In this document: positions 8,878-30,363 of the stretch, in pieces
Layout of the letters: every line of letters begins with the position of its first letter
Numbering within the stretch: the stretch's first letter is position 1
NCBI GenBank assembly: GCA_963755025.1
Contig: CAVWIH010000035.1
Location: 1-30,400, forward strand
Source: an uncultured Actinomycetes bacterium
GTDB taxonomy: Bacteria; Actinomycetota; Thermoleophilia; UBA2241
Direction of reading: 5' to 3'
Length of the DNA: 30,400 nt
Notes under the pieces: generated by a model
The model's input: only the letters and a program-made list of their open reading frames with translations
The model's database searches: none
Told to the model about the DNA's origin: nothing
Position numbers and translations under genes: made by a program

Positions 8878-10572
8878 CTACTTGTTGATCCAGTAGTGCT
8901 CGAAATCGAAGATCCACACCGGGTGCAGGTAGATGCCGCCGGTGCGCTTGGAGTGCAGCGTGGTGACCGTTTCCTGGTACAGCGGCAAGCCCGGCGCCTG
9001 ACTCATGATGTAGGCCTGCATCTGCTGGAACTTCACGAGGCGCGCGGCTGGGTCGGTCATGACCTGGGCGTTCACCAACGCGGTCTCGACCTTGGGGTCC
9101 CACCAGAAGCTCGGGTTGGTGCCCTCGTCGATCGCCGAGCTCTTGCTGAACAGGCTGATGACGTAGTCGAACGGGTCGGGGTAGTCCATCCACCAGTCGT
9201 TCAGCCCGATGCCGACGGCGCCCTTCTTGCCGATCAGCGTCCAGTACGACGGCTCGTCGAGCAGCTTGATGTTCGCCTTGACGCCGATCTGCGAGAGGTC
9301 GTACTGGATCGACTGGATCACCGTCGGCCAGGGCGCGACGTTGTGCGAGTACAGCGTCGTCGTGAAGCCGTTGGGGAAGCCCGCTGCGGCCAGCATCTGC
9401 TTGGCCTTGGCTGGGTTGTAGCCGTAGAAGTCGCCGGCCGCGCCGTCGACGTGGCCGGGCAGGCCGGCCGGGTAGATCTGGTTGAGCGGCAGACCGGTGC
9501 CCGACAGCAGCTTGACGATCTTGGCGCGGTCGATGGCCCACGACAGCGCCTGGCGCACGGCCACGTTGTCGAACGGCTTGACCGTGTCGTTGAAGAACAG
9601 GTAGTCGAGCGCGATGGCGGGTTCAGCCACCACCTGGCTCTTCCACGTCGGGTTGACGGTCAGGCTCGGGTAACTGGCAGGGGGGATGTAGTTGCCGAGC
9701 AGGTCGGCATCGCCGCTCTGCACCTTGAGCACGGCGGTCGTCGGCGTGATCGAGAACTGAAAGTCGATAGCGTCGAGGTAGCCCGCCGTGGTGCCCGTAT
9801 AGTTGGTGTTGCGCTTGAGCAGCAGGTCCTGGCTGGGCGTCCAGTGGTCGGCGACGTAGGGGCCGGTGCCCAGCGGGTGCCGCCCCACCTGCTTGCCCCA
9901 CTTGGCGACCCACTCCTTGGCCACCGGCGCGCTGAAGGGCATCTCCATGATGTTCAGGAAGGTGGCGATCGGCTTTTGCAGGTCGACCTCGAGCGTGTAC
10001 GTGCCGGTCGCCTTGTAGCCGGCGATCGTCTTGGCCTTGCCGTTCAGGAAGGCCTGCAGGCCGACGATGCCGGTGTAGTAGCCCTTGGCCGGCGCCGTGG
10101 GCAGGCTCATCATGCGCTGGAAGCTGTAGACGAAGTCGGCGGCGGTGACCTCGCGGTTCACGGGAGGGGCGAACTTGATGCCCGGCCTGATGTGGAAGAT
10201 GTAGGTCTTGCCGCCGTTGGTGATGCCGCCGTTGGCCACGGTCGGCACCACGGTAGCCATGTCGGGGACGATCGTCGTGCCGGCGGCGCCGGCGCCCGTG
10301 CTGTAGTTCAGCAGGTTGCCGAAGATGGCATGCTCGATGGCCCAGCCGTTGCCCTCGAAGTCGATCGCCGGGTCGAGCGTCTGGGGCTCGTTCTGGAAGG
10401 CGACGACCAAGGTGCCGCCGCGCTGCGGCGTGGTGGTCTGGGCGCCGCTCGTGGCGCCGGCGCCCGACGAGCTGCCGCACGCGGCCAGCAGCAGCGCGCA
10501 GGCGGCCACGGCGAGCACGCCGCATGCCGCGTAGCGCGCGCGCCCACGCCACGGCCTGAAGATCTCGGTCAT
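8878..10572 (-). CDS. ABC transporter substrate-binding lipoprotein, family 5 (DppA/OppA-like)
   Basis: Lipobox LLLAAC, RGGTL, EPQTLDPA, VTAADFVYSFQR, PLGTGPY, PFDNVAVRQALSWAIDR, YNPAKAKQMLAAAG; RBS AAAGGAG. Confidence 0.92.
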   Translation of the reverse strand: MTEIFRPWRGRARYAACGVLAVAACALLLAACGSSSGAGATSGAQTTTPQRGGTLVVAFQNEPQTLDPAIDFEGNGWAIEHAIFGNLLNYSTGAGAAGTTIVPDMATVVPTVANGGITNGGKTYIFHIRPGIKFAPPVNREVTAADFVYSFQRMMSLPTAPAKGYYTGIVGLQAFLNGKAKTIAGYKATGTYTLEVDLQKPIATFLNIMEMPFSAPVAKEWVAKWGKQVGRHPLGTGPYVADHWTPSQDLLLKRNTNYTGTTAGYLDAIDFQFSITPTTAVLKVQSGDADLLGNYIPPASYPSLTVNPTWKSQVVAEPAIALDYLFFNDTVKPFDNVAVRQALSWAIDRAKIVKLLSGTGLPLNQIYPAGLPGHVDGAAGDFYGYNPAKAKQMLAAAGFPNGFTTTLYSHNVAPWPTVIQSIQYDLSQIGVKANIKLLDEPSYWTLIGKKGAVGIGLNDWWMDYPDPFDYVISLFSKSSAIDEGTNPSFWWDPKVETALVNAQVMTDPAARLVKFQQMQAYIMSQAPGLPLYQETVTTLHSKRTGGIYLHPVWIFDFEHYWINK

Positions 10573-10664: not shown

Positions 10665-11832
10665 GTGCGACCGTCCGACGAAGACCTGATCAGACTGCTC
10701 TGCGACCTTGTCGCGATCGACTCGACCAACCCCGGCCTCGTGCCCGGAGCGGCGGGCGAGGAAGCGCTCGTGCGCTTCCTCGCCCGCCGCCTCAGCGCCG
10801 CCGGGCTCGTCGTCGACGTCTGGGAGCCGCGGCCCGGGCGGCCGAACTTCGTGGCCACGCTGCCCGGCCACGACGGGCGCGACGCGCCCACCCTCATGCT
10901 GGTGGGCCACCTCGACGTGGTCGGCGGCGCTCCCGAGATGTTCACCCCGCAGCTGCGCGACGGACGTCTCTACGGGCGCGGCAGCAACGACATGAAGGCC
11001 GGACTCGCCGCCGCCGTGACCGTCGCCGAGCGCCTCGCCGCCGAGGCCCGCGCGGCCGGCGGCAGGTCGCCGCTGCGCGGCGACCTGCTCGTGGCCGGCT
11101 GCGCCGACGAGGAGTGGGAGAGCTTCGGGGCCGAAGATATGGTGACCGCGCTACCACCCCGCCGCGGCCATCCTGCCCGAGCGCACCGACTTGGACGTCA
11201 CGGTCGAGCACGGCGGCTTCACCTGGTTCGAGCTCGAGAGCCGCGGCGTCGAAGCGGCCGGCGCCGAGCCCGAGAAGGGCGTCGACGCCATCGCCTTGCT
11301 GGGGCCCGCGCTGGCCGGCATCGCCGCGCTCGACCGCGAGCTCGACGCGCGGCCGCACGCCTCGTACGGGCGCGGCTCCATCCACGCCGCGACCATCGCC
11401 GGCGGCACGCAGCTGCCCGCCTACCCCGCCCTCTGCCGCCTGGGCGTCGAGCGCTGCCTCATCGCCGGCGAGACGGTGGCGCAATCGTGCGCCGAGATCG
11501 ACGCGCTGCTCGCCGCCGCCCACGGCGCCGACCCGCGCTTTGCCGCCAGCAGCCGCCTGGTCGTGGGCCGCGAGCCCGTCGCCCTGCACCGCGACGACCC
11601 CGTGGTGCTGGCGCTCGCCGGCGCGGCCGCGGACGAGCTCGGTCACCCGCCGCTCGTGCGCGGCGACATCGGCTGGGCCGACTCGGGCATCTTCGCCGAA
11701 GCCGGCATACCGTGCGCCCAGTTCGGTCCCATCGGCGACGGCGAGCATACCGCCGCCGAGTGGGTCGACGTGGCCTCGGTCGCGCTCGTGGCGCGCGTGC
11801 TCGAAGCCGCCGCCCGCCGCTACTGCGCGTAG
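10665..11832 (+). CDS. M20 family ArgE/DapE-like deacylase/peptidase (1-nt insertion near 11148)
   Basis: LVAIDSTNP, GHLDVV, GRLYGRGSNDMKAG, ADEE in the first frame; then AAAILPERTD, SIHAATIAGG, GWADSG, FGPIGDGEHT..EWV in the next frame. AGGAG before GTG 10665. Confidence 0.87.
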
Positions 11833-11890
11833 GCCCCCGCCGGGCCGCAGCTCGGCGTACTACGGTAATCGGTTCAAGCCGCCCCTCTGC

Positions 11891-11902
11891 GTGGGGTATC
11901 GT
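11891..11902 (+). promoter_or_regulatory. Putative -10 of a leaderless transcript (HAD gene)
   Basis: GTGGGG-TATCGT-N6-ATG with no SD sequence. Confidence 0.5.
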
Positions 11903-11908
11903 TGGCCC

Positions 11909-12631
11909 ATGATCCGCGCCGTCACACTCGATTTCTGGAACACCCTCATGGACGACTTTCACCTGCCCGGCCGCGAGACGCTGCGCGCCGTCAGGCTGGC
12001 CGAGCTCGTGGCGCCCTACGGCTACCGTCTCGACCCGGCGCAGATCGCCGCCGGCTTCGACGACGTCTGGCGCCACTTCGACAAGATCTGGTACAAGAAG
12101 AAGCGGACGCCCACGACCGCCGAGTCGGCCGGCGTGCTGCTGCACGCCCTGCACGTCAAGCTGCCCGGCGAGGCCGTTGCGCGCGTGACCGCCATGCTCG
12201 AAGAGGTCGTTCTCGAGAGCCCGCCGCAGACGGTCGCCGGAGTGCCCGAGACGCTGCCGTTGCTGGCCGAGCGCTACGCCCTGGCGGTGGTCTGCGACGC
12301 GGCTCTCACTCCTGGGCGGGTCCTGCGCCAGGTGCTGGGCCTGCACGGACTCGAGCGCTACTTCTCGGCGTTCTTCTTTTCCGACGAGCACGGCTTCTCA
12401 AAGCCCGATCGCCGCGCCTTTCTCACGCCCCTCGCCGAGCTCGGGATCGCGCCCCACGAGGCGGTCCACGTGGGCGACATCCAGCGCACCGACATCGACG
12501 GCGCCCAAGAAGCCGGGCTGCGCGCGGTGCACTTCGTAGGGGTCAACTCGTCCGACCTGCAGGTCTCCACGGGCGACGCGGTCGCCTTTCGGTTCGGCGA
12601 CCTTCCGGCCCTGATCGCCGGCCTGCGCTGA
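11909..12631 (+). CDS. HAD-superfamily hydrolase
   Basis: MIRAVTLDFWNTL (motif I variant), FSDEHGFSKPD, HVGDIQRTDIDGAQEAG. It is the C-terminal part of the 10571..12631 track ORF. Confidence 0.87.
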   Translation: MIRAVTLDFWNTLMDDFHLPGRETLRAVRLAELVAPYGYRLDPAQIAAGFDDVWRHFDKIWYKKKRTPTTAESAGVLLHALHVKLPGEAVARVTAMLEEVVLESPPQTVAGVPETLPLLAERYALAVVCDAALTPGRVLRQVLGLHGLERYFSAFFFSDEHGFSKPDRRAFLTPLAELGIAPHEAVHVGDIQRTDIDGAQEAGLRAVHFVGVNSSDLQVSTGDAVAFRFGDLPALIAGLR

Positions 12632-12656
12632 CCGGCGCCGCCGTGACGCCGCCGGC

Positions 12657-13439
12657 GTGACTCCGTCCGCCGTGAGCTCGCCGCCCGCCGCCGGGCGCCG
12701 CTTCTGGCCGACGCTGCTCCTGTTCGTCGTCGTCCCGGTCGCGGTGTTCGCGGCGGTCGCCGTCGTCGTGTTCGTGGGGGGCACGCCCTCCTGGGACATC
12801 TCGCTGCTGCAGCTCGCGGCGCGCCATCAGCAGGCCACGGCGCGCACGCTCGTCGACATCTACACCACGCTCGGCGCGCTGTGGCTGGTGCTCGTCCTGC
12901 TGGGCTGCGCGCTCGCGCTCCTGTTGCACGCCCGGCTCTACCGGCAAGCTGCTTTCGTCGCTACGGCGACGGTCCTCAGCATGTCGACCGCCGGCATCTT
13001 GAAGCTCGTCTTCGCCCGGGCGCGGCCCGAGGTGATACCCCAGCCGCTCGGCAGCTACTCGTTTCCGAGCGGCCACACGATGAGCGCGACGGGCCTGGCG
13101 GTGTCGCTCGTCGTGGTGCTGTGGCCCACACGCTGGCGCGTGCCCGCGCTCGTGGTAGGCGTGGTCTGGGCGGTGGGGGTCGGTGTGTCGCGGGTCTACC
13201 TCGGCTACCACTTTCCCTCAGACGTGGTGGCCGGCTGGGCGCTCTCGCTGGCGGTGGTGGGCGCCACGCTGCTGGGGTTCGGCGGGCGAGTGGGTATTCC
13301 GCGCAGTCCCGGCGCCGGGACCGGCTCTGAGGGCGACCCGCGCCATCCGGCCGGGGAGACGAGTGTCGCGGCGGAGCCGCCGCGGCCGGCCGGCGACGCA
13401 AGCGTCGCGGCCGATCCGCGCCCGCCGGATGGCGACTAG
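12657..13439 (+). CDS. PAP2-family membrane phosphatase
   Basis: K..FARARP, SFPSGH, SRVYLGYHFPSDVVAG; multiple TM helices; duplicated 13-aa C-terminal unit (PAGETSVAAEPPR / PAGDASVAADPRP). Confidence 0.9.
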   Translation: MTPSAVSSPPAAGRRFWPTLLLFVVVPVAVFAAVAVVVFVGGTPSWDISLLQLAARHQQATARTLVDIYTTLGALWLVLVLLGCALALLLHARLYRQAAFVATATVLSMSTAGILKLVFARARPEVIPQPLGSYSFPSGHTMSATGLAVSLVVVLWPTRWRVPALVVGVVWAVGVGVSRVYLGYHFPSDVVAGWALSLAVVGATLLGFGGRVGIPRSPGAGTGSEGDPRHPAGETSVAAEPPRPAGDASVAADPRPPDGD

Positions 13440-13493
13440 GCACGCAACGAAGTCACGCACGTCTGAGCGGCGACGACGCAGTCGATCGACGGC

Positions 13494-15030
13494 CTAGAGC
13501 AGCGCGGCCGCCGCGGCCAGCCTGCCGGCCGCCTCGTTGCGGCCGAGGGCCCAGAGCGACTCGAACAACCCCGGCGTGACGGCCTGGCCGCTCATGCCCA
13601 GGCGCAGCGCCGCGAAGACGGCCTTAGGCTTCACCCCGAGCAACTCGGGCAGGGCCCGCACGGCGGCCTCGATCTGCTCGATCTCGTAGCGCTCGAGTCC
13701 GGCGAGCGACACGGCGGCCTCGGCGAGGATGCGCTGCGCCTCGGGAATCGCGGCCAGGCGCTCGCGGGCCTCGCCGGAGATCGCCAGCGGCGTGAAGATC
13801 CAGCCGGCCATGCGCACGAAATCGGCGAGCACCTCCATCTTCTCCTGCACGAAGGGCGCCATGAGCGCGGTCAGTCGTTCCTGCTCGTCGCCGGGCGGCA
13901 TGGCCACGAGCTCACCCAGCTCGACCGCCTCGGAGAGCGCCGCGTCGCCCTGGTCCGCGAGCAGCCGCAGCGCCGGCGGCTGGCCGTAGAAACCGATGCG
14001 CTCGAGGTAGTTCTGCAGGCGAGCCGCCAGGTCGGCGGGCGCCAGGGAGCGGATGAAGCGGCCGTTCATCCAGCGCAGCTTCTCGGGGTCGAAGATGCTG
14101 GCGCTCGTGCCCAGCTTCTCGACTTCGACGCGCTCGACCAAGTCGGCGAGGGTCCAGGTGATCATCGACTCGTCGAACTCGGTCGACAGGAAACAGAGGT
14201 AGTTGCGCACGACCTCGACCAGAAAGCCCATGGCGGTGAGCTGCTCTAGGTTGGTGGCGCCGTGGCGCTTGGAGAGCTTCTTGCGGTCGGTGCCGAAGAG
14301 CAGCGGCATGTGCAGGAACTGCGGCAGCGGCGCGCCCAGCGCCTCGTAGATCAGGATCTGCTTGGGCGTGTTGGAGAGGTGGTCGTCGCCGCGGATGACG
14401 TGGCGTGATGGCCATCGTGACGTCGTCGACGACGACCGCCAGGTTGTAGATGATGGTGCCGTCGGAGCGCTGCACGATGAAGTCGCCGATGGTCTCGTTG
14501 GCCACCTCGACCGGGCCGCGCAGCAGGTCGTCGAAGACGGTCGCTCCGGGGCGCACCTTGAAGCGCAGCGTCCAGGGCTCGCCGGCGGCCTTGCGGCGGG
14601 CGACCTCGTCGGGGCTGAGGTCGCGGCAGGCGCCGCCGTAGACCCAGGCGCGCTTGTCGGCCTGGGCGGCGCGGCGCTCGGCTTCGAGCTCGTCGGGGGT
14701 GTGAAAACAGGTGTAGAGGTGGCCCGAGGCCACGAGCTTGTCGATGTGCTCGCGGTAGATCGCCTGGCGTTCGGTCTGGCGGTAGGGCGCGTGCGGGCCA
14801 GGCTTCTCGGGGCCCTCGTCCCAGTCGAGCTGCATCTCGCGCAGGGAGCGCAGGATCTGGGCGATGGCCTCGTCGGTCGAGCGCGACGGGTCGGTGTCTT
14901 CGATGCGCAGCACGAAGTCGCCGCCGCGCTTGCGCGCGAAGAGGTAGTTGTACAACGCGGTGCGCGCGCCGCCCAGGTGCAGGTAGCCGGTGGGAGACGG
15001 GGCGAAGCGGACGCGGACGGGTGCGGTCAT
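13494..15030 (-). CDS. gltX: Glutamate--tRNA ligase (1-nt insertion near 14403)
   Basis: VRVRFAPSPTGYLHLGGARTALYN, LRIEDTD, YNLAVVVDD. After removing one base it continues ITHVIRGDDHLSNTPKQ...KKLSKRHGA...FDPEKLRWMN. Confidence 0.95.
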
Positions 15031-19907: not shown

Positions 19908-21647
19908 GTGAGCAACTTCTATACAGACGACCCCGACCTGCAGCGCCAGCTCGAAGCGCTCGACCTGCGGCGCATCGTGGCGCTGCGCGAAGACGACTTC
20001 GAGCAGGCCCACGAGTTCGCCTACGCCCCCAGCGACCACGACGACGCGCTCGACTCGTACCGCCGCACGCTCGAGATCGTGGGCGACATCGCCGGCGAGT
20101 TTGTGGCGCCGCGCGCCGAAGAGGTCGACCGCGCCGGCGCCACCCTGGTCGACGGCGAGGTCTGCTACGCGCCCGGCATGCAAGAAGCGCTCGACCGCCT
20201 CACGCAGGCCGACCTCATGGGCATCACGCTGCCGCGCCGCTACGGCGGGCTGAACTTTCCCATCACCGTGTCGGTCATGATCGTCGAGATGATCTCGCGC
20301 GCCGACCCAGCGCTCATGAACGTCTTCGGCCTGCAGGACATCGCCGAGACCGTCAACAAGTTCGCCACCGACGAGCTCAAGCAGGCCTACCTGCCGCGCT
20401 TCGCGTCGGGCGAGGTCACGGGCTCCATGGCGCTCACCGAGCCAGAGGCCGGCAGCGACCTGCAGAACGTGCAGCTCAAGGCCGCCCTGGGCGACGACGG
20501 CGTCTGGCGCCTGTCGGGCGTGAAGCGCTTCATCACCAACGGCTGTGGCGCCGTCGCCCTCGTGCTGGCGCGCTCCGAAGAGGGCACCACCGACGCCCGT
20601 GGCCTGTCGCTGTTCCTCTACGAACGCGACGAGCACATGAAGATCCGCCGCCTCGAAGACAAGCTCGGCATCCACGGCTCACCCACCTGCGAGCTGCAGT
20701 TCACAGACGCGCCGGCGCTCCTCATAGGCGAACGCCGGCGCGGCCTGACGACCTACGTCATGAGCCTCATGAACGGCGCCCGCATAGCCATCGCCGCCCA
20801 GGCGCAGGGCATCGCCGAGGCCGCCTACCGGGCCGCCTCCAAGTACGCCGACGAACGCGTGCAGTTCGGCGGGCCCATCCGCAACCTCACGGCCGTGTCG
20901 GCCATGCTGGCCGACATGAAGGTGTCGCTCGAAGCCTCGCGCGCGCTGCTCTACGAGACGGCCATGATCGTCGACGAAAAAGAGGGACTCGAGCGCCGCA
21001 TCGAGCAGGTGCAGTCGGGCGCCCGTCTGGCTGCTGCAGACGACGAGGTGAAGACGCTGCGCGCCGAGCTCAAGACCTTCACGCGCCTCGCCGCGCTGTT
21101 CACGCCGCTCGCCAAGGCCTGCTCGACCGAGATGGCCAACCGCGTGGCCTACGAGTCGCTGCAGATCCACGGCGGCTCGGGCTACATGCGCGACTTCGCC
21201 GTCGAGCGCCACGCCCGCGACGCCCGCATCACCAACATCTACGAGGGCACGACGCAGCTCCAGGTCGTGGCCGCCCTGGGCGGCGTGCTGTCGGGCACCC
21301 TCGCCGCGCGCCTCGCCGACTACGACGCGCTCGACTACGCGGCCACCCCCGAGCTGCTCGGCGCCGTGCGCGCCGCCGTCGGGCGCTGGAGCGCCGCGGT
21401 GGCCCACGTGCGCGCTTTGGACGACGCCGCCTTCCGCGACTTTCACGGCCGCCGCATGGTCGACACCGCGATCGACCTGATCTGCGCCTACCTGCTGCTG
21501 CGCGCCGCCCAGCGCGACGCCCGCAAGCTGCTCGTCGCGCGCTACTTCATCGAGCAGATGAGCGCCCGCGTCGAGGGCGCCGCCCAAGCCGTGCTCGGCA
21601 GCACAGCGGCGGCCATCGACGCCCTGCAGACCCTGGGGCGCGACTAA
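19908..21647 (+). CDS. Acyl-CoA dehydrogenase (long form with C-terminal extension)
   Basis: MALTEPEAGSDL, GVKRFITNG, KLGIHGSPTCEL, LMNGARI, LQIHGGSGYMRDF..ER..RDARITNIYEGTTQLQ; GGGAG RBS before GTG 19908. Confidence 0.92.
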   Translation: MSNFYTDDPDLQRQLEALDLRRIVALREDDFEQAHEFAYAPSDHDDALDSYRRTLEIVGDIAGEFVAPRAEEVDRAGATLVDGEVCYAPGMQEALDRLTQADLMGITLPRRYGGLNFPITVSVMIVEMISRADPALMNVFGLQDIAETVNKFATDELKQAYLPRFASGEVTGSMALTEPEAGSDLQNVQLKAALGDDGVWRLSGVKRFITNGCGAVALVLARSEEGTTDARGLSLFLYERDEHMKIRRLEDKLGIHGSPTCELQFTDAPALLIGERRRGLTTYVMSLMNGARIAIAAQAQGIAEAAYRAASKYADERVQFGGPIRNLTAVSAMLADMKVSLEASRALLYETAMIVDEKEGLERRIEQVQSGARLAAADDEVKTLRAELKTFTRLAALFTPLAKACSTEMANRVAYESLQIHGGSGYMRDFAVERHARDARITNIYEGTTQLQVVAALGGVLSGTLAARLADYDALDYAATPELLGAVRAAVGRWSAAVAHVRALDDAAFRDFHGRRMVDTAIDLICAYLLLRAAQRDARKLLVARYFIEQMSARVEGAAQAVLGSTAAAIDALQTLGRD

Positions 21648-21673
21648 GCCTGCAGACCCTGGGGCGCGAGTAG
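21623..21673 (+). repeat. Tandem duplication of the acyl-CoA dehydrogenase 3' end including its stop codon
   Basis: CCTGCAGACCCTGGGGCGCGA at 21623-21643 (+C-TAA) and 21649-21669 (+G-TAG); 26-bp period. Confidence 0.9.
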
Positions 21674-21742
21674 ACCCGAAGTCGCGCTGGGGTCCGCGCA
21701 CCGCGAGAGCCCCCGGGTCCGCTCGACTCGTTCGAGGTCCCG

Positions 21743-22241
21743 CTATCGCCCCCGGAAGTGCTTCTCGCCGCCGAGCAGCCGCAGGGTGACCTCGTCGGGC
21801 CAGCCCGGACCGAGCGGACCGACGGGTGTGCGGCTCAGCTCGACTTGATTCGCCGAGCAGATCGACCAGCGGTTCGCGCCGCCACATTAGCATCTGCGCG
21901 AACTCGTTCAGCGACCCCAGGTGCGACCGGCTGTTCGTCTTTGCGACCACGACGTCGGCGGCGGCGTCGAGCTCGGGCACGAGGTGGGTGGCCGGCACGT
22001 CGAGCTCGATGAGCACGGCGGCAAGCGCCTTGGAAAAGGTCTCCGGGAGCCGTTTGAGGTCGCGCGCGGGCATGAGCACCGGCAGGCGCGACCGCTCGCT
22101 CATGAGCAGCACGAGTCGTTGGTGACCGATGTTGAGCGGCCGCGCGTACCAGTCGCCCAGGGCGGTCGTTGAGGGCGGTGGGTCGTCGACCGGCGGACCC
22201 AACCGCGAGAGAAGTTTCTGCGTGCAGCGCAGCACGAGCAT
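21743..22241 (-). CDS. DUF6933-like hypothetical protein (1-nt insertion near 21845)
   Basis: MLVLRCTQKLL...LGDWYA...KTNSRSHLGSLNEF matches my recollection of DUF6933. Removing one base gives ESVELSRTPVGPLGPGWPDEVTLRLLGGEKHFRGR* (stop at 21743). Confidence 0.65.
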
Positions 22242-22245
22242 GCGG

Positions 22246-23838
22246 TCAGGCCTCCTGGGGCCCTTGGGCCGTACCGCCCCTCAGGCTCTCGCGGAGCTCG
22301 GCCATCGCCTCGGCGATGATGCGCTGCTGAGCTGCGATCTCGTCGAGCAACTCTTCGGGCGTGCGGGTGTCTTCGTCGACGACGCGATGCGGGTTGACCG
22401 CCTTGAGGTCGTAGCCGCGCGCCTCGATCTCGTCGCGCGACACGGTCCACGAACGCTCCGAGTCGGGCCGCTCGACCGCTCCACCGGCGCGGCCGTCGCC
22501 GACCAGCTCGAAGAAGTCGCCCATGCGCGCCAGCGTGAACGCCGTCTTCTTGCCCACCTTCAAGTCGCTGAGGTCGTAGTACCAGATGCGCTCCGTCGGG
22601 CGGCCCTTGTTGAAGAACAGGAGGTTGGTCTTCACGCCGGCGCCGGCCTGCGAGAACACGCCGGGCGGCATGCTGACAATGCACCACAGATCGCAGTCGT
22701 CGAGCAGCTTGCGCTTGGTCTGCACGAAGGCGGTCTCGTTGGTGCGAAACAGTACTCCCTCGTCGATGACCAGGCCGCAGCGCCCGCCCGGTCTGTCGCT
22801 TTTTGCGGGGCGCAGGCTGTCGATCACGTGCTGCAAGAAGAGCACCTGAGTGGCTCCGGTCTTGTAGGCGAAGCGCGTCTGGGCGTCTTTGCCCTCCTTG
22901 CCGCCAAAAGGCGGGTTCATGAGGATGACGTCGTAGAGCTGCGGCGCGCCGGTGAAGAGGCCGTCGTAGGCAGCCGTCTGGGTGAGCGTGTTGCCGTGCC
23001 AGATGTGGGGCGCGTCGATGCCGTGCAGCACAAGGTTGGCGAGCGCGATGGGGTAAATGGCGTTGTCCTTCTCGCGGCCGTAGAAGGTACGCCGCTGCAG
23101 GGTCTCGAACTGGCCGCCCGAGTCGAGGTTGACGTTGGCGACCCCGGCCATGTGCTCAAACGACTGCGCCAGAAAGCCGCCGGTGCCGCAGCCCGGGTCG
23201 TAGACGGTCTCGCCGAGGCGCGGGTCGACCACGCGCACCATCGCCCGAATGATCTCGCGCGGCGTGAAGAACTGCCCACCGTCGTTGCCCTTCTCGCCCA
23301 TCTTGAGCAGCAGGCCCTCGTAGATCTGCGACAGGGTGAACACGTGGGTCGTGTCGACCGACTGGCCGTCGATGTCGTGCACGCGGTCGATCACGTCGAG
23401 GAAGTTGCGTTCGGTATCGATGCGCGTGCGCTCCACCGAGCTCATGATCTGGCTGATGACCTTTTGGCGCGACGTCGCGTGCGGCTGCTCACCGAGCGCG
23501 CGCAGGTGTGGCAGCAGCTCGGTGTGGACGAAGTCGAACATCGCGCCCAGGGTGCCGCCCTCCTGGAGCTCCGTCCGCTTCGGTCCGCCCGGCGCCGCCC
23601 AGTCGCGCCAGCGATAGGGCGGAGCCAGCGACGCCTTGAACTCGACGCCGACCGCCGCCGACTCTGCCGCCTCTTGCTCTTCGCGCTCGTCGAGGATGCG
23701 CAGGAAGAGGATCCAGGTGAGCTCGGGCACGTACTGCAACGCGCCGGCGCAGTTGGAGCGCCGCATGATGTCGCAGATCTGTTTGACGGCGGTGTTGACC
23801 GACTGCTGGGTGGCGAGCTTCTTGCCGTTGACTGCCAT
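22246..23838 (-). CDS. hsdM: Type I restriction-modification N6-adenine methyltransferase subunit
   Basis: CDIMRR, YVPELTWILFLR, GQFFTPR, YDPGCGTGGFL (motif I), NPPFGG (motif IV), VKTNLLFF, helical C-terminal tail. Confidence 0.93.
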   Translation of the reverse strand: MAVNGKKLATQQSVNTAVKQICDIMRRSNCAGALQYVPELTWILFLRILDEREEQEAAESAAVGVEFKASLAPPYRWRDWAAPGGPKRTELQEGGTLGAMFDFVHTELLPHLRALGEQPHATSRQKVISQIMSSVERTRIDTERNFLDVIDRVHDIDGQSVDTTHVFTLSQIYEGLLLKMGEKGNDGGQFFTPREIIRAMVRVVDPRLGETVYDPGCGTGGFLAQSFEHMAGVANVNLDSGGQFETLQRRTFYGREKDNAIYPIALANLVLHGIDAPHIWHGNTLTQTAAYDGLFTGAPQLYDVILMNPPFGGKEGKDAQTRFAYKTGATQVLFLQHVIDSLRPAKSDRPGGRCGLVIDEGVLFRTNETAFVQTKRKLLDDCDLWCIVSMPPGVFSQAGAGVKTNLLFFNKGRPTERIWYYDLSDLKVGKKTAFTLARMGDFFELVGDGRAGGAVERPDSERSWTVSRDEIEARGYDLKAVNPHRVVDEDTRTPEELLDEIAAQQRIIAEAMAELRESLRGGTAQGPQEA

Positions 23839-23844
23839 GGTCGC

Positions 23845-23850
23845 AGTCTA
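23845..23850 (-). promoter_or_regulatory. Putative -10 of a leaderless hsdM transcript
   Basis: TAGACT-N6-ATG(23838) with no SD; same geometry as gltX. Confidence 0.5.
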
Positions 23851-23903
23851 TCGGGTTGAGGGAGCCCGGACACCGCGGCGTGACCCCGGCCGAAGGGGTC
23901 GCC

Positions 23904-23955
23904 ATTTTCAAAGTCAGCGGAGCTTTGGAAAATATCGGCCCTGATTCTTTCAAAG
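23904..23955. repeat. Three alternating-orientation copies of an AT-rich TTT(C)CAAAG motif
   Basis: ATTTTCAAAG (23904-23913), CTTTGGAAAAT (23923-23933, inverted), ATTCTTTCAAAG (23944-23955). Confidence 0.6.
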
Positions 23956-23978
23956 CCGGCCGACGTTGTGGCCGCACG

Positions 23979-24371
23979 TCACTCCACTCTCTTGATCGAC
24001 CCGTCCTTCGCGACGCGATAGATGAATGGCGCGGTCTCCGACTCGGCCGCGCGCTCGATGCGCTTCCGCGCCTTTGCCAGAATGGCCGCCGTTTGTTCCG
24101 CCGTCAGGTTGCCGGAGGCGACCACAAACGCCTTCAGGCCGGCCTTGCGCAGCGCCTCGGCTTCTCTTGTGCGGTAGCGGATCCGAGCGTCTTGCGTAAG
24201 GAACACCCAGCCGCGCGAGGCCACGGAGGGCAGCAGCTCGACGTCCTTCGTGGTCTGTTCGAAGTGGTCGTCGTGCACCTCGATGACCCAGCCGGCAGCA
24301 CGCAGAGCGGCGGGCACCCTGTGACCGAGGTTCCGGTCGCAGAAGAAGACTAGGCCGCGGGCCTCAGCCAG
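23979..24371 (-). CDS. VapC45-like PIN-domain ribonuclease toxin; start uncertain
   Basis: LVFFCDRNLGHRVPAALRAAGW..EVHDDHF...KDVELL...GWVFLTQDARIRYR..E. The catalytic N-terminal FFxDxxLG lies upstream of the track's GTG 24317. Confidence 0.8.
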   Translation of the reverse strand: MAEARGLVFFCDRNLGHRVPAALRAAGWVIEVHDDHFEQTTKDVELLPSVASRGWVFLTQDARIRYRTREAEALRKAGLKAFVVASGNLTAEQTAAILAKARKRIERAAESETAPFIYRVAKDGSIKRVE

Positions 24372-25018
24372 AGCTCGTATCTGAGGGCGTTCTCGACATC
24401 GTCGACGGTCAAGCCGAAGTCGTCTGCGATGACGCCGATGCGCTCATCAGCCTCGAAGCGTCCACGAATGATCTCGGTGCGCACGCCGCGCACCTGGGGC
24501 AGACCGAACTCGACCTCGGGGTTCTGACGCACGACGCCGCCTTTTGGCCGCCACTCGACCGGCCACTTGTCCTGCCAGTCGATTTGGTGCAGATACTCCC
24601 CCAGGACCTTCTCGAGAGCGCGCTGTCCGCCCTTGGTAAGCGACGCCAACTGCTCCGAGCCGTCGGCGGACACCTCGCTCGTCCGCATGAAGACCTCGTT
24701 GCCGGCGATCATGATGCCGCGCCTGGCGAAGGGGTGGTCGGGCTCCTCACCCGTGGCTACGCGGTGCGCCGCACGTATTGCCTGGAGGGACACACCGTTG
24801 GACCGCAGCTCAGCGACGACGGCCGTTTCGATGAGGTCGTCGAATGAGAACGGGGCCGGCTTGCGCGGATCGACCGAGCTGCGCAGCAGCGGGGGCCGTT
24901 CGGTCTCGTCGTCGCGGTACCCCAGGTAGAGGCGATGGACGAGCTGTGCCTGGGCACGAGCGTACCGCGAGACATCGCTCAGCGAATACAGCGGGATCGT
25001 GGATGGTCTGACCGTCAT
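24350..25018 (-). CDS. VapB45-like antitoxin (N-terminal HTH + C-terminal DUF433)
   Basis: PLYSLSDVSRY, FSFDDLIE...ELRSNGVSLQAIRAA, DHPFA, NPEVEFGLPQVRGVRTE...IADDFGLTVDDVENALRYE; RBS GAGGAGG; TAGAAT -10 at 25049-25044. Confidence 0.82.
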   Translation of the reverse strand: MTVRPSTIPLYSLSDVSRYARAQAQLVHRLYLGYRDDETERPPLLRSSVDPRKPAPFSFDDLIETAVVAELRSNGVSLQAIRAAHRVATGEEPDHPFARRGIMIAGNEVFMRTSEVSADGSEQLASLTKGGQRALEKVLGEYLHQIDWQDKWPVEWRPKGGVVRQNPEVEFGLPQVRGVRTEIIRGRFEADERIGVIADDFGLTVDDVENALRYELWLRPAA

Positions 25019-25100
25019 GCCTCCTCAGTTCGACCGGTGACCGATTCTACCCTGCAAATCGCGCGCCACCACGGAGCGGTGCCAACGTCAACCTTGTCGA

Positions 25101-25551
25101 CTAGGAACCGTGCGTTCTGTACCACGCGTGGGCCTTTTTGACGTGATCGACCCAGAGCGCCACCGCGTAGTCGTCCCGCTTTGAGGCCACGAGGCCCAAG
25201 TCCTTCAACAACTGGTAGAAGCCGTCGCCCGGCGTGCCATCGTTGGCGCTCACTACGATGGCGCTTGCGAAGAACTCGCCCTTGTCGTAGCTGCGCTGAC
25301 TGATGTGGCCGAGGAAGTCGCCGACGATCGAGCGGTCCAAGTCCCGCCAGTCGGCGACGTCGATGAAGCGAGGCGACTCCTTCAGGTTGGGGAGATCGAA
25401 CGGGACGCCTTCGACGAGTTCCGAATAGGTGAGCGTCCTCCCGGCGCGCCCGCGAGCGGCGATGCGTGTCTCGAGCTTCCGCGAGCGCCTTCGGATCGCG
25501 CTCGGCATACAACCAGCGGATCTTGTCGAATGCGAGGGAGATCTCAGCCAT
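25101..25551 (-). CDS. Hypothetical ~149-aa protein, possible winged-helix fold (1-nt insertion near 25480)
   Basis: MAEISLAFDKIRWLYAERDPKALA joined to KLETRIAARGRAGRTLTYSELV...IVGDFLGHIS...FASAIVVS..DGTPGDGFY. GAGGAG RBS; starts 2 nt after the upstream stop. Confidence 0.7.
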
Positions 25552-25553
25552 AC

Positions 25554-25853
25554 TCACTCCTCCCCACTGTGAATGGCGACGTGTTCCATGTCAGGGAAAT
25601 CGACAGCAACCTTCTCGCCCTGCCGAATGTGGGACTGAAACCAGCGAGTCAGAGCAGCTCCGCCATGAATCCTGGGTGTCCCGTTCTGATTGGCCTGCCG
25701 ATCGACCCTTCCGTCGATCTCGTCGCCTTCGCGCCCGAGTTGCAGGCGGACCGGCCCGCTCGTTGGTCGGACGTGCCGATCGAAGCCCATACCGACGTTG
25801 AGGAACCCCTTCTCGTAGTAGGTCTTGTGCACCGTCAGCAAATAGCGCGGCAT
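25554..25853 (-). CDS. Hypothetical 99-aa protein, possible stand-alone B3/pseudobarrel-like DNA-binding domain
   Basis: GGAGG RBS; beta-rich sequence KTYYEKGFLNV...IDGRVDRQANQNGTPRIHGGAALTRWFQ...GEKVAV. Confidence 0.7.
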   Translation of the reverse strand: MPRYLLTVHKTYYEKGFLNVGMGFDRHVRPTSGPVRLQLGREGDEIDGRVDRQANQNGTPRIHGGAALTRWFQSHIRQGEKVAVDFPDMEHVAIHSGEE

Positions 25854-25936
25854 GTTGCCTCCAGTCTCGCTCGGTCCAGCCCGCTACAGCCCGGGAGTGA
25901 GCGCGTTAGTTCCTTCGGCGCTGGGTCCTCCAACAG

Positions 25937-27158
25937 TCAACCAAAAGAGGGTGAGAATGCAGCTCGCAGGATGGCCGCCGGTAGGCAGTCGATCCCAGAT
26001 GCTCCTCGACCCGCAGCCCGCGAAGTGGCATCAAGTTGACGCGCCAAGGCCGCCCATGACTCGACAGCGGCGTCTTGCTGTGAAAGCGTCGGGACGGGAA
26101 TCTCGAGCGATTCGATCTTCCTGACACTGAGCGTGTGCAGGCCGGTCGTTGTCATCGCCCGTTGAAGCATCTGCTCCATGCCTTGGCGACTGTTCAGATA
26201 GAGACTCAGGTACTCGGGGTTCAGGAGGTCGCGGCGTGGGCGAACGCGGATAACGTGGTTCTGATGGACGCACTCGTCGATCTCACCGCGGAACAGCGCA
26301 TTGCGGCCAATCTGGTCGCGACTTCCGTTGCCCTCCACTACGAGCAGGTCGCCTGAGTGAAGCCGGAGGCGATCAAGTTCGGCGGGCGTCACTTCCATGC
26401 GCTCGACGTCGGACAGGTCCAGATACCCGCGCATGACGTTGCGCACAGTGAGAAACGGCCGATGGAACAACTGGGGAGCCCGAGCCGGAGACTTCTGAAT
26501 TCCGCCCGTCACCGTGGCGACATCGCCACATCTCCGCGGAGCGGATCCGGACCGACAGAGTCTGGCCAAGAGACCTTCGAGCGTCGTCGTCGCCAGACCA
26601 CGGAGCAACTCCGCCTCGGCATCCATGGCGGCACGCATGCGCGCTGCCGCATCCAGCTGCTCACGTAACGATGCGGCGACTCGCTTCTGCTCGGGAAGCC
26701 GTGGGAGGTCAAGTGGAACGCGCGCAATCTCGTCGAGTCTGATGCGGGGAAGCTGTCCAGGCCCCGAGTCGACGGGGGCACGGCTGAGGAACAGAGGGCT
26801 CCTCATGAACCAGGCGATGAACTCGACGTCGGCTCTGCGCTCATCCACGCGGTAGACGTACTGGGTCGACCGAACAGAGCCCGTCGAAGTCGGCTAGCCA
26901 CACCTTGTTGAGGTAGGGGCGCAGATACCCGTAGACGATATCGCCTGCCTTGAAGCGGGCCTTGCGACCGGTCATGGTCGACTTCTCCATCGGCTCGCTG
27001 CCAAGCCGCCGTCCGGTTCCAGGCTCGATGTGCTCGAGGCCAACAAAGACGTCGGGGCCAGTCGGATTGTCACGGGGGTGGACGATCTCATTGCGGGGAG
27101 TGAGGACCTCGCCGAGGGTGACGGTAGCAGCACCCAGCCTTCTGGCAGCCGCGCTCAC
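25937..27158 (-). CDS. hsdS: Type I R-M specificity subunit with two TRDs (1-nt insertion near 26863)
   Basis: TRD1 LGEV...VGLEHIE...FKAGDIVYGYLRPYLNKV; spacer LPRLPEQKRVA + coiled coil; TRD2 GGIQK...EGNGSRDQIGR...HQNHVIRVR; IPVPTLSQQ; AILRAAF. Removing one base gives CSVDQYVYRVDERRADVEF. Confidence 0.9.
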
Positions 27159-29571
27159 GCCGCGAACATCCGCGCCTTGGTGTCGAGCAGCACAGCAGCG
27201 GGGTCGCCGAGCGCTGACAGCGCCCCGAGCCCGCCGGCGCGCACGACGGCGGGCACCCGGAAGATCTGCGGGCTCTCCAGTCCTTTGGTGCCGTCATGGG
27301 CAAACTGCAGGGCCAGGGCGCGCATGGTGGCGGCGGTCCTCGCCGGCAGCCCGGCGAGCCAGGCCGCGTGCTTGTAGGTAAACGCCTCGGCGCGCTCGGC
27401 TCGGGTGCGCGGGGCGAGGCCGTAGCCGAGCTCGGCGAGCACGTCGTAGAGGTCGTACTCGGCCATGTGCTCGACGGCCTGCACGATGATCGGCGAGCGG
27501 CCGGCGTCGGGCAGGTGGGCGAGCAGCGACTCGCGCTGCGGCGGCACGATCCAGCGCTGGCGGAAGGCGTCGAGCGTCAGCGCCTCGGTCACGAGTCGCT
27601 CGGCGAGACGCTCCTTGTACTCCTCGACCGGCACCGGCATGGTGCGGCCGTCGTGGTCCACGGTGAGAATCGCGGTGCCGTTGTGGACGAGGCGCACCTG
27701 AAAGCCCTCGACGAGGTAGATCGGTTCGGGCTCGGGCGCCGGCTCGGGTGGCTCGGGGCCGTCGTCTGGGCGCTTCGTGCGCGACTTGCGGTACTTCGTC
27801 GCGAAGTCCTCGCCGAAGAGGCGCGTTGCGTTGGTGTAGTCGTAGATGCGGAACATGAGCTTGTCGGTCGCCGGGTCCAGCCGGGTGCCGCGGCCGACCA
27901 TCTGGTAGAAGCTGATCGGCGAGCGCACGTACTTGAAGAAGACGATGTTGCGCACTGGCGGCACGTCGACACCGGTGCTCAGCAGGTCGACAGTGGTGGC
28001 CATGAAGTGCGAGCGCGAGGCCGCCTTCAGGTCGGCGATGTACTGGGCGCCGCCCACGCTGGCGGTGCACTTGAAGGCGTAGGGCTCGGCGCGTTTGCAG
28101 GCGTGAGCCTGACACCAGGCGGCGTAGAGGTTGTTCATCTCGTTGGCGACACGGTCGGCGTGGTGGTCACGGGCGCAGAAGACGATCGTCTTCTGCTCCG
28201 GGCCGCCGGTCTCGACCAGGTGGGCGAACAGATCGACGCACATGGCGTGAACGCGCTCGGGCATGAGCAGCAGCGCCTCGAAGCTCTCGGCGCCGTAGTG
28301 CTCGCGGGTCTCGGTCAGATCGACGGGCTCGCCGGTGAGGGCGTCGAGCAGCGACTTGCCGGCCAGGTCCTCGCGGTCGATGCCGGTGATCTCCTCCGAC
28401 TCGTGCTCACGGTCCAGGAAGACCGCCTGCCTGACCACCTCGCAGGCCGCCAGATAGCCGTCTTCGATGCCCTGGCTGATGTCGTACTCGTAGACCGGCT
28501 CACCGAAGTAGGCGAGGTTGTCGGCGTTGAGCTTCTGGTCGGCGAGCGCCTCCGCGGTCTTCTCGGCGACGGTGAAGGTGCGCGGCGTGGCCGTCAGGCC
28601 GACCTGCACGGCGTTTGGGTTGCGGGTGAGGACTTGCGACCACTTGCCCCAGGCCGAACGGTGGCACTCGTCGATGACGATGTGGCTGAAGCAGTCCTCG
28701 GGGTAGTTGGCGAGCAGGAAGTTGGCCTCGGCGTCGTCGGTGGCGACGTCGAGGGTCTGGTAGGTAGCGACAAGTATGCGGGCGTTCTTCTGGGGATCGC
28801 CGCCGCCCACGGCGGCGGCGTCGGCGCCGAACACGTTCTGCAGCGCGCCGGTGCCCTGGATGCGCAGTTCGTCGCGGTCGCAGAGGAACAGGGCGCGCTT
28901 GAGCTGGCCGGCATCGGCGATGCGCTTGAGCAGGTTGACTGCGATGAAGGTCTTGCCCGAGCCGGTGGCGAGCGAGAGCAGGGCCCTCTTGGGCCGGCCC
29001 TCTCGCTCGCAGCGCGCCACCTTCTCCAGGACAGCCCTGATGGCGGCGTCCTGGTAGTAGCGGCGGTTGCCTTCGCCGTTGTGGTAGCGCCGAAGAAGCG
29101 GCGCAGCGGAGGGGTCGGCCAGCGCGAAGCCCATGCCCTGCTCGTAGCGCGCCTGCAGGTCTTGCGGTGTGGGGAACTCGGTAAGTTTGCGAGGGGCGTG
29201 CGTCAGCCCAGAGAAGCGGTCGTACTCGACGAACTGGTGGCCGTTGCTGGCAAACACGAATTGCACGTTGAGGCGCTTGGAGGCGGCGTAGAGCTTGGCC
29301 TGTTCGAGCCCGTGGCCGGGCGGCTTGCTCTCGGGCTTTGCCTCGATCAGCGCCACGGCGACTGGCTGGTCGTCGGGCGCAGGCTTGATGCGCAGGGTGT
29401 AGTCGATACGGCCCTGAGCCTGCTTGAACGGCCGGCCGTTGATGATCTCGATGGCGCCGGCCGTCTCCTCACGCCGGATCAGTCTTCGGTCCAGCCTCTG
29501 GCGTGGATGGCCGGGTCGATGAGCTTGGCGCGCGTATCCGACTCGCTGAGTCCCGTGTGCGTGAGCGCCAC
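27155..29571 (-). CDS. hsdR: Type I restriction endonuclease/translocase subunit, EcoAI/EcoEI-like (1-nt deletion near 29482)
   Basis: From GTG 29571: LSESDTRAKLIDPAIHARGW; nuclease motif IDY...LIEAK; RYYQ, LATGSGKT, DECHRS, GLTATP, LLSTGVD, QMVGRGTR. RBS GGGGGAG; TAGAAT -10 at 29607-29602. Confidence 0.93.
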
Positions 29572-29702: not shown

Positions 29703-30363
29703 TTAGCGGTAGCTCACCGTGTCGGCCAGGTGGCAGTAGCGGATCAGCGAGAAGTGCGCCGGGTACCACTTGCTCATGGGCAGGTGCCTGTGGGCCACCG
29801 TGTGGCTGTCGTAGAGCCACTGCCCGTGCCTTTGGCGACGCAGATGATGACGTGCTCCCAGGCGGCGACGCCGGCGGTCATGTTCCCCAGGTAGACCACG
29901 TCGCCGACGGCCCAGTCGCGCGGCCGCTTTGTCGTGCTGCTCACGATGACGGGCGAGCTCAGGTCGCCGGTCGCCGTGCTCCAGGCGCGCTGCTGCGCGG
30001 TGCAGTTGACCCAGCCGAGGCTGGGAAACCGCGTGCCGGCCGGCCGCCACGTGCCGGCGCCGTCGAAGGCGCGCAGGCCGCCGGCCGCGACGCACTGCGA
30101 CACGAAGTTCGCGCAGTCGTCGGTGCGCGAGTGCCAGTAGACCGGGTTCGTGCCGAGCGCCCACCTGTCGGCGTAGGCGGCGGCTGCGGCGCGGTCGTAG
30201 ACCACGCGGCCGCCGCCGCTCCCGCCGCCGTGCGCCACGACTGCAGCGATCGCATCGCCGCGAGCACCACCAGCACCGCGAAGAGGCGCCGGCGCCGGCG
30301 GCGCCGGCGCCGGCTCACCCGGTGGGCGTGGTCAACCCACCGGACCGGCCGCTCACTCGCCAT
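29703..30363 (-). CDS. Membrane-anchored Amidase_6-like (papain/NlpC-P60-fold) protein; two 1-nt deletions near 30253 and 29830
   Basis: Poly-Arg then a hydrophobic helix; YDRAAAAAYADRWA, DCANFVSQCVAAGG, GDVVY, WEHVII, YDSHT distributed over three frames. Confidence 0.75.

Follow-up and report, generated by a model that had tools for sequence, protein, structure and literature searches.

A type I restriction-modification locus whose hsdS–hsdM junction appears to exchange small conflict genes

Introduction

In type I restriction-modification (R-M) systems an HsdM2S1 complex methylates the target sequence and an HsdR2M2S1 complex restricts unmodified DNA. Loci for these systems, and for BREX and DISARM, are reported to hold embedded genes often: Payne et al. 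(2024) list 17,432 non-redundant embedded genes in 3,231 families, and 145 candidates were added to PADLOC (10.1101/2024.01.29.577857). According to a study of enteropathogenic Escherichia coli (EPEC), the toxin-antitoxin (TA) pair DarTG2 lies between hsdS and hsdR of the RRDM island, at a site described there as a potential recombination hotspot (PMC12255303). Pairs of a PIN protein and a COG2442/DUF433 protein have been put forward as a predicted TA class, with Rv2018/Rv2019 as an example in which the DUF433 protein is fused to a helix-turn-helix (HTH) domain (PMC2701414); in Mycobacterium tuberculosis this pair is named VapBC45 (PMC3968373). Here we describe a type I R-M locus that carries such a pair, together with two small genes termed orf99 and orf149, on contig CAVWIH010000035.1 of an uncultured thermoleophilian bacterium (assembly GCA_963755025.1). 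The window analyzed is the whole contig (C35; 30.4 kb) of a 3.37-Mb metagenome-assembled genome (MAG) of 39 contigs, 70.7% GC, rated 84% complete and 5% contaminated.

Comparison with relatives leads us to favor, with a probability of about 0.68, a reading in which the locus is a type I R-M system whose hsdS–hsdM junction is a hotspot for the swapping of small conflict genes, the modules found there being most likely autonomous.

Results

Gene turnover between hsdS and hsdM

The island runs on the minus strand from 29571 to 21743 and consists of hsdR, hsdS, orf99, orf149, a DUF433 antitoxin gene, a PIN_10 toxin gene, hsdM and a DUF6933 gene. The initial annotation had placed the same eight genes on one strand at these positions and in this order, which is borne out; its 'orf149' and its end at 21743 do not exist in the sequence as written and appear only after correction of indels (see below). 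The coupling of hsdR to hsdS by GTGA that it noted is seen as a 4-nt overlap between the GTG of hsdS and the TGA of hsdR.

Variants of this lineage – hsd1, defined by an hsdR or hsdM with 84–97% protein identity to that of the window – differ in what they hold between hsdS and hsdM (genomes and loci are named by our labels; a prime marks a relative of a window gene). In G003 and the metagenome locus L087 the slot contains orf99' (48%), a Fic gene, a BrnT-like gene on the other strand and a DUF6941 gene, and DUF6933 is missing. In G004 it contains DUF433-PIN plus a 1.55-kb insertion with an MqsR-like gene, located between what are window positions 23976 and 23957, and DUF6933 follows hsdM. The slot of G344 holds DUF433-PIN-Fic; that of L080 holds HARE-HTH, DUF429, orf149' (62%), orf99' (52%), MqsA/Panacea, an Mrr fragment and DUF6941. 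Several loci are reduced: L086 retains only the first 313 nt of hsdR, followed by orf99', a DUF433 gene with an internal stop, Gp49, Fic and hsdM; G086 has Fic-hsdM but neither hsdR nor hsdS in the 12 kb before it; and G283, G253 and G340 keep remnants of hsdR, hsdM or both. In G009 the corresponding site, which adjoins the acyl-CoA dehydrogenase gene, is reduced to DUF433-PIN and the terminal ~125 nt of DUF6933: the pair persists there without flanking hsd genes, which fits an addiction module that outlives its neighbors.

A Fic protein of about 400 aa (Fic_N, Fic and a C-terminal winged helix) lies upstream of hsdM in five hsd1 variants and abuts it directly in four of the five; the window has no Fic gene. 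The outgroup G190 (hsdM 51%, hsdR 48% identical) carries contiguous hsdR-hsdS-hsdM, with hsdS and hsdM overlapping. Since the slot is uninterrupted in this outgroup and differs among the hsd1 variants, the slot is a hotspot and the ancestral scaffold was uninterrupted.

The four-gene insert is thus not a conserved unit: close relatives hold different sets of passengers. The initial annotation was right in describing a type I locus with nested passenger genes, as the hsd1 variants show; its further proposal, that all eight genes form one fixed 'guarded R-M' system, is not supported, each passenger being present or absent independently in the relatives. It had also offered to give up a link between insert and R-M system if the inserted genes never co-occurred with hsd genes elsewhere and their deletion changed neither phage resistance nor the response to anti-restriction proteins. 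They do recur with hsd genes elsewhere, and the link is therefore not refuted on that ground. For orf149 the recurrence amounts to one hsd1 variant (L080) and the neighborhood of one unrelated hsd locus.

A second type I lineage with DUF433-PIN at the same junction

G128, from a different bacterial family, carries hsdR-hsdS-DUF433-PIN-hsdM as a run of overlapping genes in which the PIN stop touches the hsdM start. Its type I system is only 27–28% identical to ours (hsdM 27.5%) and belongs to a lineage that we call hsd2. Among 12 distinct hsdM genes of hsd2, the slot holds DUF433-PIN in three (G128, G781, G845) and a distant DUF433-like gene in one; hsdS and hsdM are contiguous, or nearly so, in four, and the remaining four have other or unrecognized content. 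A maximum-likelihood tree was built from 28 antitoxins, leaving out L086 (internal stop) and three duplicate places, with 'free' antitoxins defined as those with no hsd match within 1.5 kb. In this tree free-living pairs stand between the hsd1-embedded and the hsd2-embedded ones, and each of the two embedded groups has its own clade with good support.

The toxin-antitoxin pair

The antitoxin matches DUF433 in its C-terminal part (Pfam, 9.4e-6; 25.8 bits, cut-off 23.6) and HTH_66 in its N-terminal part (0.003), and aligns over residues 7–212 with PDB entry 5af3_A, 'VAPBC49' (E 1.1e-8). The toxin frame is open upstream of its GTG at 24317, and the reading from a CTG at 24371, which overlaps the antitoxin end by 22 nt, covers positions 2–83 of the 84 in PIN_10 (E 3.1e-23; 82 bits, cut-off 26.2); the reading of 112 aa covers positions 15–83 only. 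G004 and G009 share the additional upstream stretch, and in both the CTG is the only candidate start because a stop codon lies just upstream. Residues D48, D66 and E75 (numbered in the printed frame) each recur in 20 or more of the 22 relatives aligned and, judging by the PIN fold, are probably catalytic. In PHROGs the two genes gave only matches with E>3e-4. The adjacent, overlapping genes and the match to 5af3_A agree with the earlier call of a VapBC45-like TA pair.

PIN_10 is present in 41 of 401 genomes of the class. In a survey of 30 PIN_10 loci, DUF433 adjoins PIN in 22; three of the loci (four counting G004) have an hsd gene no further than 1.5 kb away, leaving 26 without one. Genomes G005 and G037 have free copies of the DUF433-PIN pair, located elsewhere. 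With its own antitoxin and free-living relatives, the pair would appear to be autonomous and does not look like a PrrC-type guard.

orf99 encodes a protein of predicted B3 fold

No match to the orf99 product was found in Pfam (E<=0.01, including B3, PF02362, and EcoRII-N, PF09217), NCBIfam, PHROGs or PADLOC. Its AlphaFold2 (AF2) model is confident (predicted local distance difference test score, pLDDT, 91), and Foldseek aligns the model with B3 domains, the N-terminal domains of LlaJI.R1 and EcoRII and the C-terminal domain of BfiI at a probability of 1.00. The VIA comparison gives the same picture: the top 28 PDB entries are all of B3 type (Z 6.3–9.8; root-mean-square deviation 2.4–3.0 over 88–97 of the 99 residues), and the next entry has a Z of 4.4. 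These 28 entries are B3 domains of plant factors or belong to the restriction enzymes LlaJI, BfiI, EcoRII, NgoAVII and UbaLAI. In the ESM Atlas the nearest named clusters are EcoRII-N at 0.86, which we treat as a lead. The protein is predicted to be a B3/EcoRII-N DNA-binding pseudobarrel that lacks a Pfam model.

A profile search with orf99 recovered 596 representatives at E<=1e-3, and 60 of the 150 proteins listed were scanned for domains. While 41 of the 60 have no additional Pfam domain, 19 do: HEPN_Swt1 in seven (one below the cut-off), DnaJ in two, and, once each, PIN, HNH, NERD plus kinase, HSDR_N_2, DUF4145, NOV_C, GNAT, DUF6494, TPR and CoA-ligase. The same type of B3 domain is fused to DUF6884 – reported to be a YaaA-like DNA-binding family (PMC11701544) – in L076, L077, L079, L093 and L105, and to DUF6884 and GIY-YIG in G024. 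In L076 and L077 an AbiEi-like regulator gene follows the fusion, and in L076 an NTP_transf_8 gene comes next.

Relatives of orf99 occur in five of 89 genomes of the family and, in a metagenome search made with a four-row alignment, at 25 loci. Three of the 25 belong to the hsd1 lineage; the others adjoin AbiEi/nucleotidyltransferase pairs, integrases, a permease/amidohydrolase pair, a replicase or an AAA_15/21 ATPase.

orf149 and its neighborhoods

Once the extra base at 25477 is removed, orf149 encodes 149 aa from the ATG at 25551 (151 aa if read from 25557). The N-terminal sequence with which its homologs (P0004–P0009; 147–153 aa) start is present in the window as well, but in the other frame. 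The AF2 model of P0004, which is 88% identical to orf149, has a pLDDT of 92. Foldseek found no match in the PDB at E<=0.001, and the ESM Atlas returned unnamed clusters only; the best VIA score is a Z of 5.2, to the MGMT C-domain and winged helices, and is within noise for a helical protein. The fold can be called weakly winged-helix-like at most. In PHROGs nothing was found for orf99, orf149 or DUF6933.

Homologs of orf149 lie at eight loci in genome contigs from six phyla-level groups, from Burkholderiales to Binatia. None of the eight has orf99, and one (L038) has hsd genes within 10 kb: in this Gemmatimonadaceae MAG the homolog adjoins a GmrSD+RAMA gene (10802–13075), upstream of a type I operon. 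In a Burkholderiales MAG (L036) the homolog (9569–9997) adjoins a gene for an SNF2/NOV_C helicase of 1147 aa (11030–14473). The association of orf149 with defense islands is therefore a loose one. The two small genes co-occur on one other contig, at 88% identity; in L080 orf149' and orf99' stand in reversed order, 800 nt apart, and hmmsearch found no orf149-like domain among the 150 listed proteins of the orf99 family. As to a TA-like pairing of orf99 with orf149, the evidence speaks neither way.

The R-M core and the layout of the island

All three subunits are recognized by domain and by defense models: HsdR by Pfam ResIII (2.8e-30), Helicase_C (1.7e-5) and EcoEI_R_C (3.9e-6) and by PADLOC REase_I (8e-77); HsdS by Pfam Methylase_S and, on both of its pieces, by PADLOC Specificity_I (2e-14 and 1e-49); HsdM by Pfam N6_Mtase (2e-53) and HsdM_N (4e-8) and by PADLOC MTase_I (9e-186). 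Against the NCBIfam EcoAI/FtnUII model HsdR scores 390 bits (cut-off 550), this score being for the 733-aa piece without the first 72 codons. The second half of hsdS has 86% nucleotide identity to the hsdS of L080. We read the locus as a type IB-like type I R-M system with the unusual order hsdR-hsdS-hsdM.

Table 1. Positions of features in the window and of Fic genes in hsd1 variants (the latter in the coordinates of the locus named)
Feature	Position	Strand	Basis
hsdR, type I restriction subunit, EcoAI/EcoEI-like (type IB-like)	27155..29571	-	Pfam, PADLOC
hsdS, specificity subunit, two frames (105 + 303 aa)	25937..27158	-	PADLOC, Pfam Methylase_S
orf99, stand-alone predicted B3/EcoRII-N-fold protein, intact	25554..25853	-	AF2, Foldseek, VIA
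orf149, helical, weakly winged-helix-like	25101..25557 (ATG 25551)	-	homologs, indel correction
Antitoxin, HTH_66-like + DUF433, VapB45/49-like, 222 aa, intact	24350..25018	-	Pfam, PDB 5af3_A
PIN_10 toxin, 130 aa from inferred CTG 24371 (112 aa from GTG 24317)	23979..24371	-	Pfam
Terminator-like hairpin with T-rich tail, between PIN stop and hsdM start	23936..23958	-	consensus scan, weak
hsdM, methyltransferase subunit, 530 aa, intact	22246..23838	-	Pfam, PADLOC
DUF6933 gene, PADLOC candidate PDC-S63, frame-broken	21743..22241	-	Pfam, PADLOC
26-nt tandem duplication, 3' end of acyl-CoA dehydrogenase gene	21623..21674	+	repeat search, 88% identity
Fic gene, L009	7694-8923
Fic gene, L086	7969-9198
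Fic gene, L177	7189-8475
Fic gene, L178	1511-2704
Fic gene, L138	8920-10098

The genes are tightly packed (Table 1): orf149 starts 4 nt before the end of orf99, the two overlapping, and DUF6933 starts 4 nt past hsdM. With 66.4% GC the island lies below the rest of the contig (71.9%), which holds metabolic genes such as those for ETF (electron transfer flavoprotein) alpha and beta and acyl-CoA dehydrogenase, and below the genome. No second copy of hsdR, hsdS, hsdM, orf99, orf149, DUF433 or PIN was found elsewhere in the assembly. When nine proteins were submitted to PADLOC, the three hsd genes were assigned and DUF6933 matched PDC-S63, with no match for orf99, orf149 or either TA gene; the question raised in the initial annotation, which genes PADLOC leaves unassigned, is thereby answered. 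A promoter scan returned no sigma-70-like site and a terminator scan five sites against 3.9 expected in shuffled sequence, a weak excess; neither scan is tuned to high-GC actinobacteria. A search for repeats flanking the cargo cassettes gave short, chance-level matches; the one exception is the 26-nt duplication that lies at the edge of the island.

DUF6933 matches its Pfam model over positions 2–123 of 157 (7.8e-28) and PDC-S63 over positions 2–135 of 190 (5.5e-11); the orthologue in G004 is intact (profile positions 1–156). PDC-S63 itself has the status of a phage-defense candidate (10.1101/2024.01.29.577857), and a literature search retrieved no paper on DUF6933, PDC-S63 or DUF6941. DUF6933 occurs in 24 of 401 genomes of the class; hsdM adjoins it in two of 30 loci, both of them orthologous to ours. 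The present genome (G000) has a second copy, 61% identical, near a contig end (C22:26184-26534). At the right edge of the island the acyl-CoA dehydrogenase gene stops at 21647 and its final 26 nt are repeated in tandem; in G003, which has no DUF6933, homology resumes at 21648. The repeat has the look of a target duplication dating from the insertion of the DUF6933 segment.

At the other edge, homology with G004 ends at 29754. Beyond this point the window has an Amidase_6 gene (29774–30238), and the relatives have GAF-GGDEF genes: either the island is flanked differently on its left in this genome, or the contig is joined to some other place.

Frame breaks: assembly error or decay

As written, four genes are broken in frame: hsdR near 29481, hsdS within 26841–26871, orf149 at 25477 and DUF6933 at 21844–21846. 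The hsdR break follows codon 30, and one base added after 29481 yields 805 codons; dropping any single base within 26841–26871 gives an HsdS of 406 aa; orf149 shifts frame after about 26 codons; and DUF6933 leaves frame after about 123 profile positions, at a T/A run (21845–21846), where one base fewer, as in intact relatives, gives 165 codons ending at 21743. Intact orthologues exist for hsdR in G004 and G003 and for DUF6933 in G004; the 5' end of hsdR in G003 (L009 2740-2790, G003:C156) reads as N, so that the start lies outside this comparison.

The background rate of such breaks was estimated from 150 long open reading frames (ORFs) on 20 contig pieces of the congener G003: 81 had an orthologue of >=80% identity (77.4 kb in all), and 10 of these 81 were split over frames, with 17 frame changes (0.22 per kb). 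This rate predicts 1.7 breaks in the 7.8-kb locus against four observed, an excess that is not significant (Poisson P about 0.1).

We also aligned to the locus the Logan contigs built from short reads of four public metagenome runs. Record 6 of contig X1, otherwise identical to the window, is without base 25477 and encodes an orf149 of 149/151 aa. At hsdR, X1 has an additional G after 29481 and X2 an additional A after 29482, each restoring the 805-aa ORF. Because the breaks in hsdR and orf149 are absent from the short-read contigs, these two are assembly errors. At DUF6933, the otherwise identical contig X4 has one additional base, which gives a stop after 135 codons. Two of the breaks in the locus fall in two-base runs that short reads resolve differently. 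The many frameshifts of this MAG, mostly assembly errors, are a warning to its readers: in an assembly so rich in indels, pseudogene calls need read support.

Discussion

The preferred reading, a type I R-M system whose hsdS–hsdM junction gathers and exchanges small mobile conflict genes, assigns each passenger its own role. The HTH/DUF433 antitoxin would bind the PIN_10 RNase and probably repress its own promoter; if the antitoxin were lost, through loss of the locus or phage-induced shut-off, the RNase would arrest growth, and such arrest could serve as addiction, as a second abortive layer, or as both. orf99 and orf149 would be passengers, most plausibly DNA-binding regulators or sensors, and DUF6933 a further, single-gene passenger downstream of hsdM. 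Several observations weigh against this reading. Given the separate clades of embedded antitoxins, DUF433-PIN entered the hsdS–hsdM junction at least twice, independently. Relatives of orf99 occur in five variants of the hsd1 lineage, spread over two genera, and in none of 400 other genomes of the phylum sample. Both the double capture and this distribution of orf99 could reflect functional coupling rather than insertion preference alone. For the break in hsdS, where coverage is thin, no informative short-read contig was found, and the truncation of DUF6933 may be real in this strain. It is conceivable, if rather unlikely, that R-S-M systems of this bacterial class repeatedly and independently recruit DUF433/PIN_10, together with orf99, as a functional second layer tied to R-M; if so, the passengers would be no hitch-hikers and would serve either as an abortive back-up, able to detect by binding DNA that restriction has failed, or as a switch of hsdM expression.

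A related idea gives the antitoxin and orf99 a mainly regulatory role: by acting on transcription of hsdM, which lies downstream of them, they would set the ratio of methylase to nuclease. The position of hsdM, downstream of the cargo and parted from hsdS, is as this idea would have it, as are the touching PIN stop and hsdM start in G128 and the predicted DNA-binding fold of orf99. Published precedents exist as well: in M. tuberculosis, deletion of vapC21 is reported to raise the transcript levels of its neighbors hsdS.1 and hsdM (PMC7517352), TvrAT within the pneumococcal type I tvr locus is described as mainly a regulator (PMC6265443), and RptR as a small protein that represses a type I island (PMC12255303). 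Controller proteins are offered as a further analog. However, homology with G003 begins only 18 nt upstream of the hsdM start codon, which implies that hsdM works behind many different neighbors; a terminator-like hairpin, albeit weak, follows PIN; and neither an operator nor a promoter was identified, the promoter scan giving no site. We regard such coupling, too, as rather improbable.

The initial annotation had proposed a guarded system: the PIN RNase, possibly aided by orf99 and orf149 as sensors, would act like PrrC and back up a type I enzyme that phage proteins inhibit. The nested position does resemble that of prrC in EcoprrI (PMC12707154); DUF433-PIN was captured independently by two type I lineages, at the same junction, and forms a compact operon in G128; and fusions of the orf99 domain family to HEPN_Swt1 (7 of 60), PIN, HNH, NERD and GIY-YIG are what a sensor module would show. 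Yet the toxin has a dedicated antitoxin, so that its silence needs no Hsd complex, and PIN_10 loci are mostly free-living; for these two reasons a PrrC-type guard is unlikely. The pair also persists without hsd genes, at the same site in G009 and elsewhere in G005 and G037, and none of the proteins submitted to PADLOC matched PrrC or another guard model. Where PrrC is described as almost exclusively embedded in type I loci (10.1101/2024.01.29.577857), DUF433-PIN is not. Least credible to us is a picture of decay, in which the R-M system no longer functions in this organism and its remnant survives only through the resistance of the TA pair to loss. Four breaks in 7.8 kb are more than twice the genome-wide rate, one of them (hsdS) stands without read evidence, a short-read contig that otherwise equals the window gives DUF6933 a premature stop, and clear remnants exist in relatives (G009, G283, G253, G340, L086). 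Nevertheless, the excess of breaks is not significant, those in hsdR and orf149 disappear in short-read contigs, and hsdM, orf99 and both TA genes are intact, with full-length matches to the catalytic domains.

Under the preferred reading of an exchanging junction, the hsd1 lineage offers a natural series – at least seven slot contents, an outgroup with an empty slot and several stages of decay – that shows cargo turnover within a restriction operon and shows that a TA pair can outlive the system around it. The families of orf99 (596 representatives) and orf149 have confident structure models and no family model, and would be candidates for phage-defense screens.

How, then, does the locus compare with systems already described? 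With EcoprrI-PrrC (type IC) it shares an RNase gene nested within a type I locus; PrrC, as reported (PMC12707154), has no antitoxin, is kept latent by the R-M enzyme and combines an ABC-ATPase with a nuclease, whereas PIN_10 has its own antitoxin, is mostly free-living and has an unrelated sequence. With DarTG2 of EPEC it shares a self-contained TA pair within a type I operon, adjoining hsdS, but the DarTG2 toxin is a DNA ADP-ribosyltransferase rather than a PIN RNase and the slot is hsdS–hsdR rather than hsdS–hsdM; moreover, the EPEC island is headed by the RptR repressor and its defense was shown experimentally (PMC12255303), whereas defense by the present locus is a prediction. VapBC45 and VapBC49 of M. 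tuberculosis have the same arrangement of an HTH-DUF433 antitoxin followed by a PIN-like toxin, at low sequence identity. The vapBC pairs near the hsd genes of that species, which we take to lie between hsdS and hsdM, are of the classical VapBC family and the pneumococcal tvrAT pair is Phd-Doc-like, and both differ in this from our pair. What they have in common with it is, according to the published accounts, a TA pair beside hsdM/hsdS.1 (M. tuberculosis) or inside the hsd genes (tvrAT), with effects on expression (PMC7517352, PMC6265443).

The closest parallel is the 'guilt-by-embedding' described by Payne et al. (10.1101/2024.01.29.577857): there, too, passengers lie between type I subunit genes, and DUF6933 matches one of the PDC models. 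The difference, as far as that account and the PADLOC models go, lies in the slot, which here is hsdS–hsdM in an R-S-M operon, and in the cargo, orf99, orf149 and DUF433-PIN_10 being without a PADLOC model; all three may already be among the 3,231 families. The suggestion that no system of this composition had been described can therefore be divided: the class of embedding is in print, and the particular cargo is new. The locus is a good example of the known embedded-cargo pattern rather than a new defense system; its novelty lies in the cargo itself, in the series of slot variants, in the independent double capture of DUF433-PIN_10 at the hsdS–hsdM junction, and in a family of predicted B3 fold that had no model.

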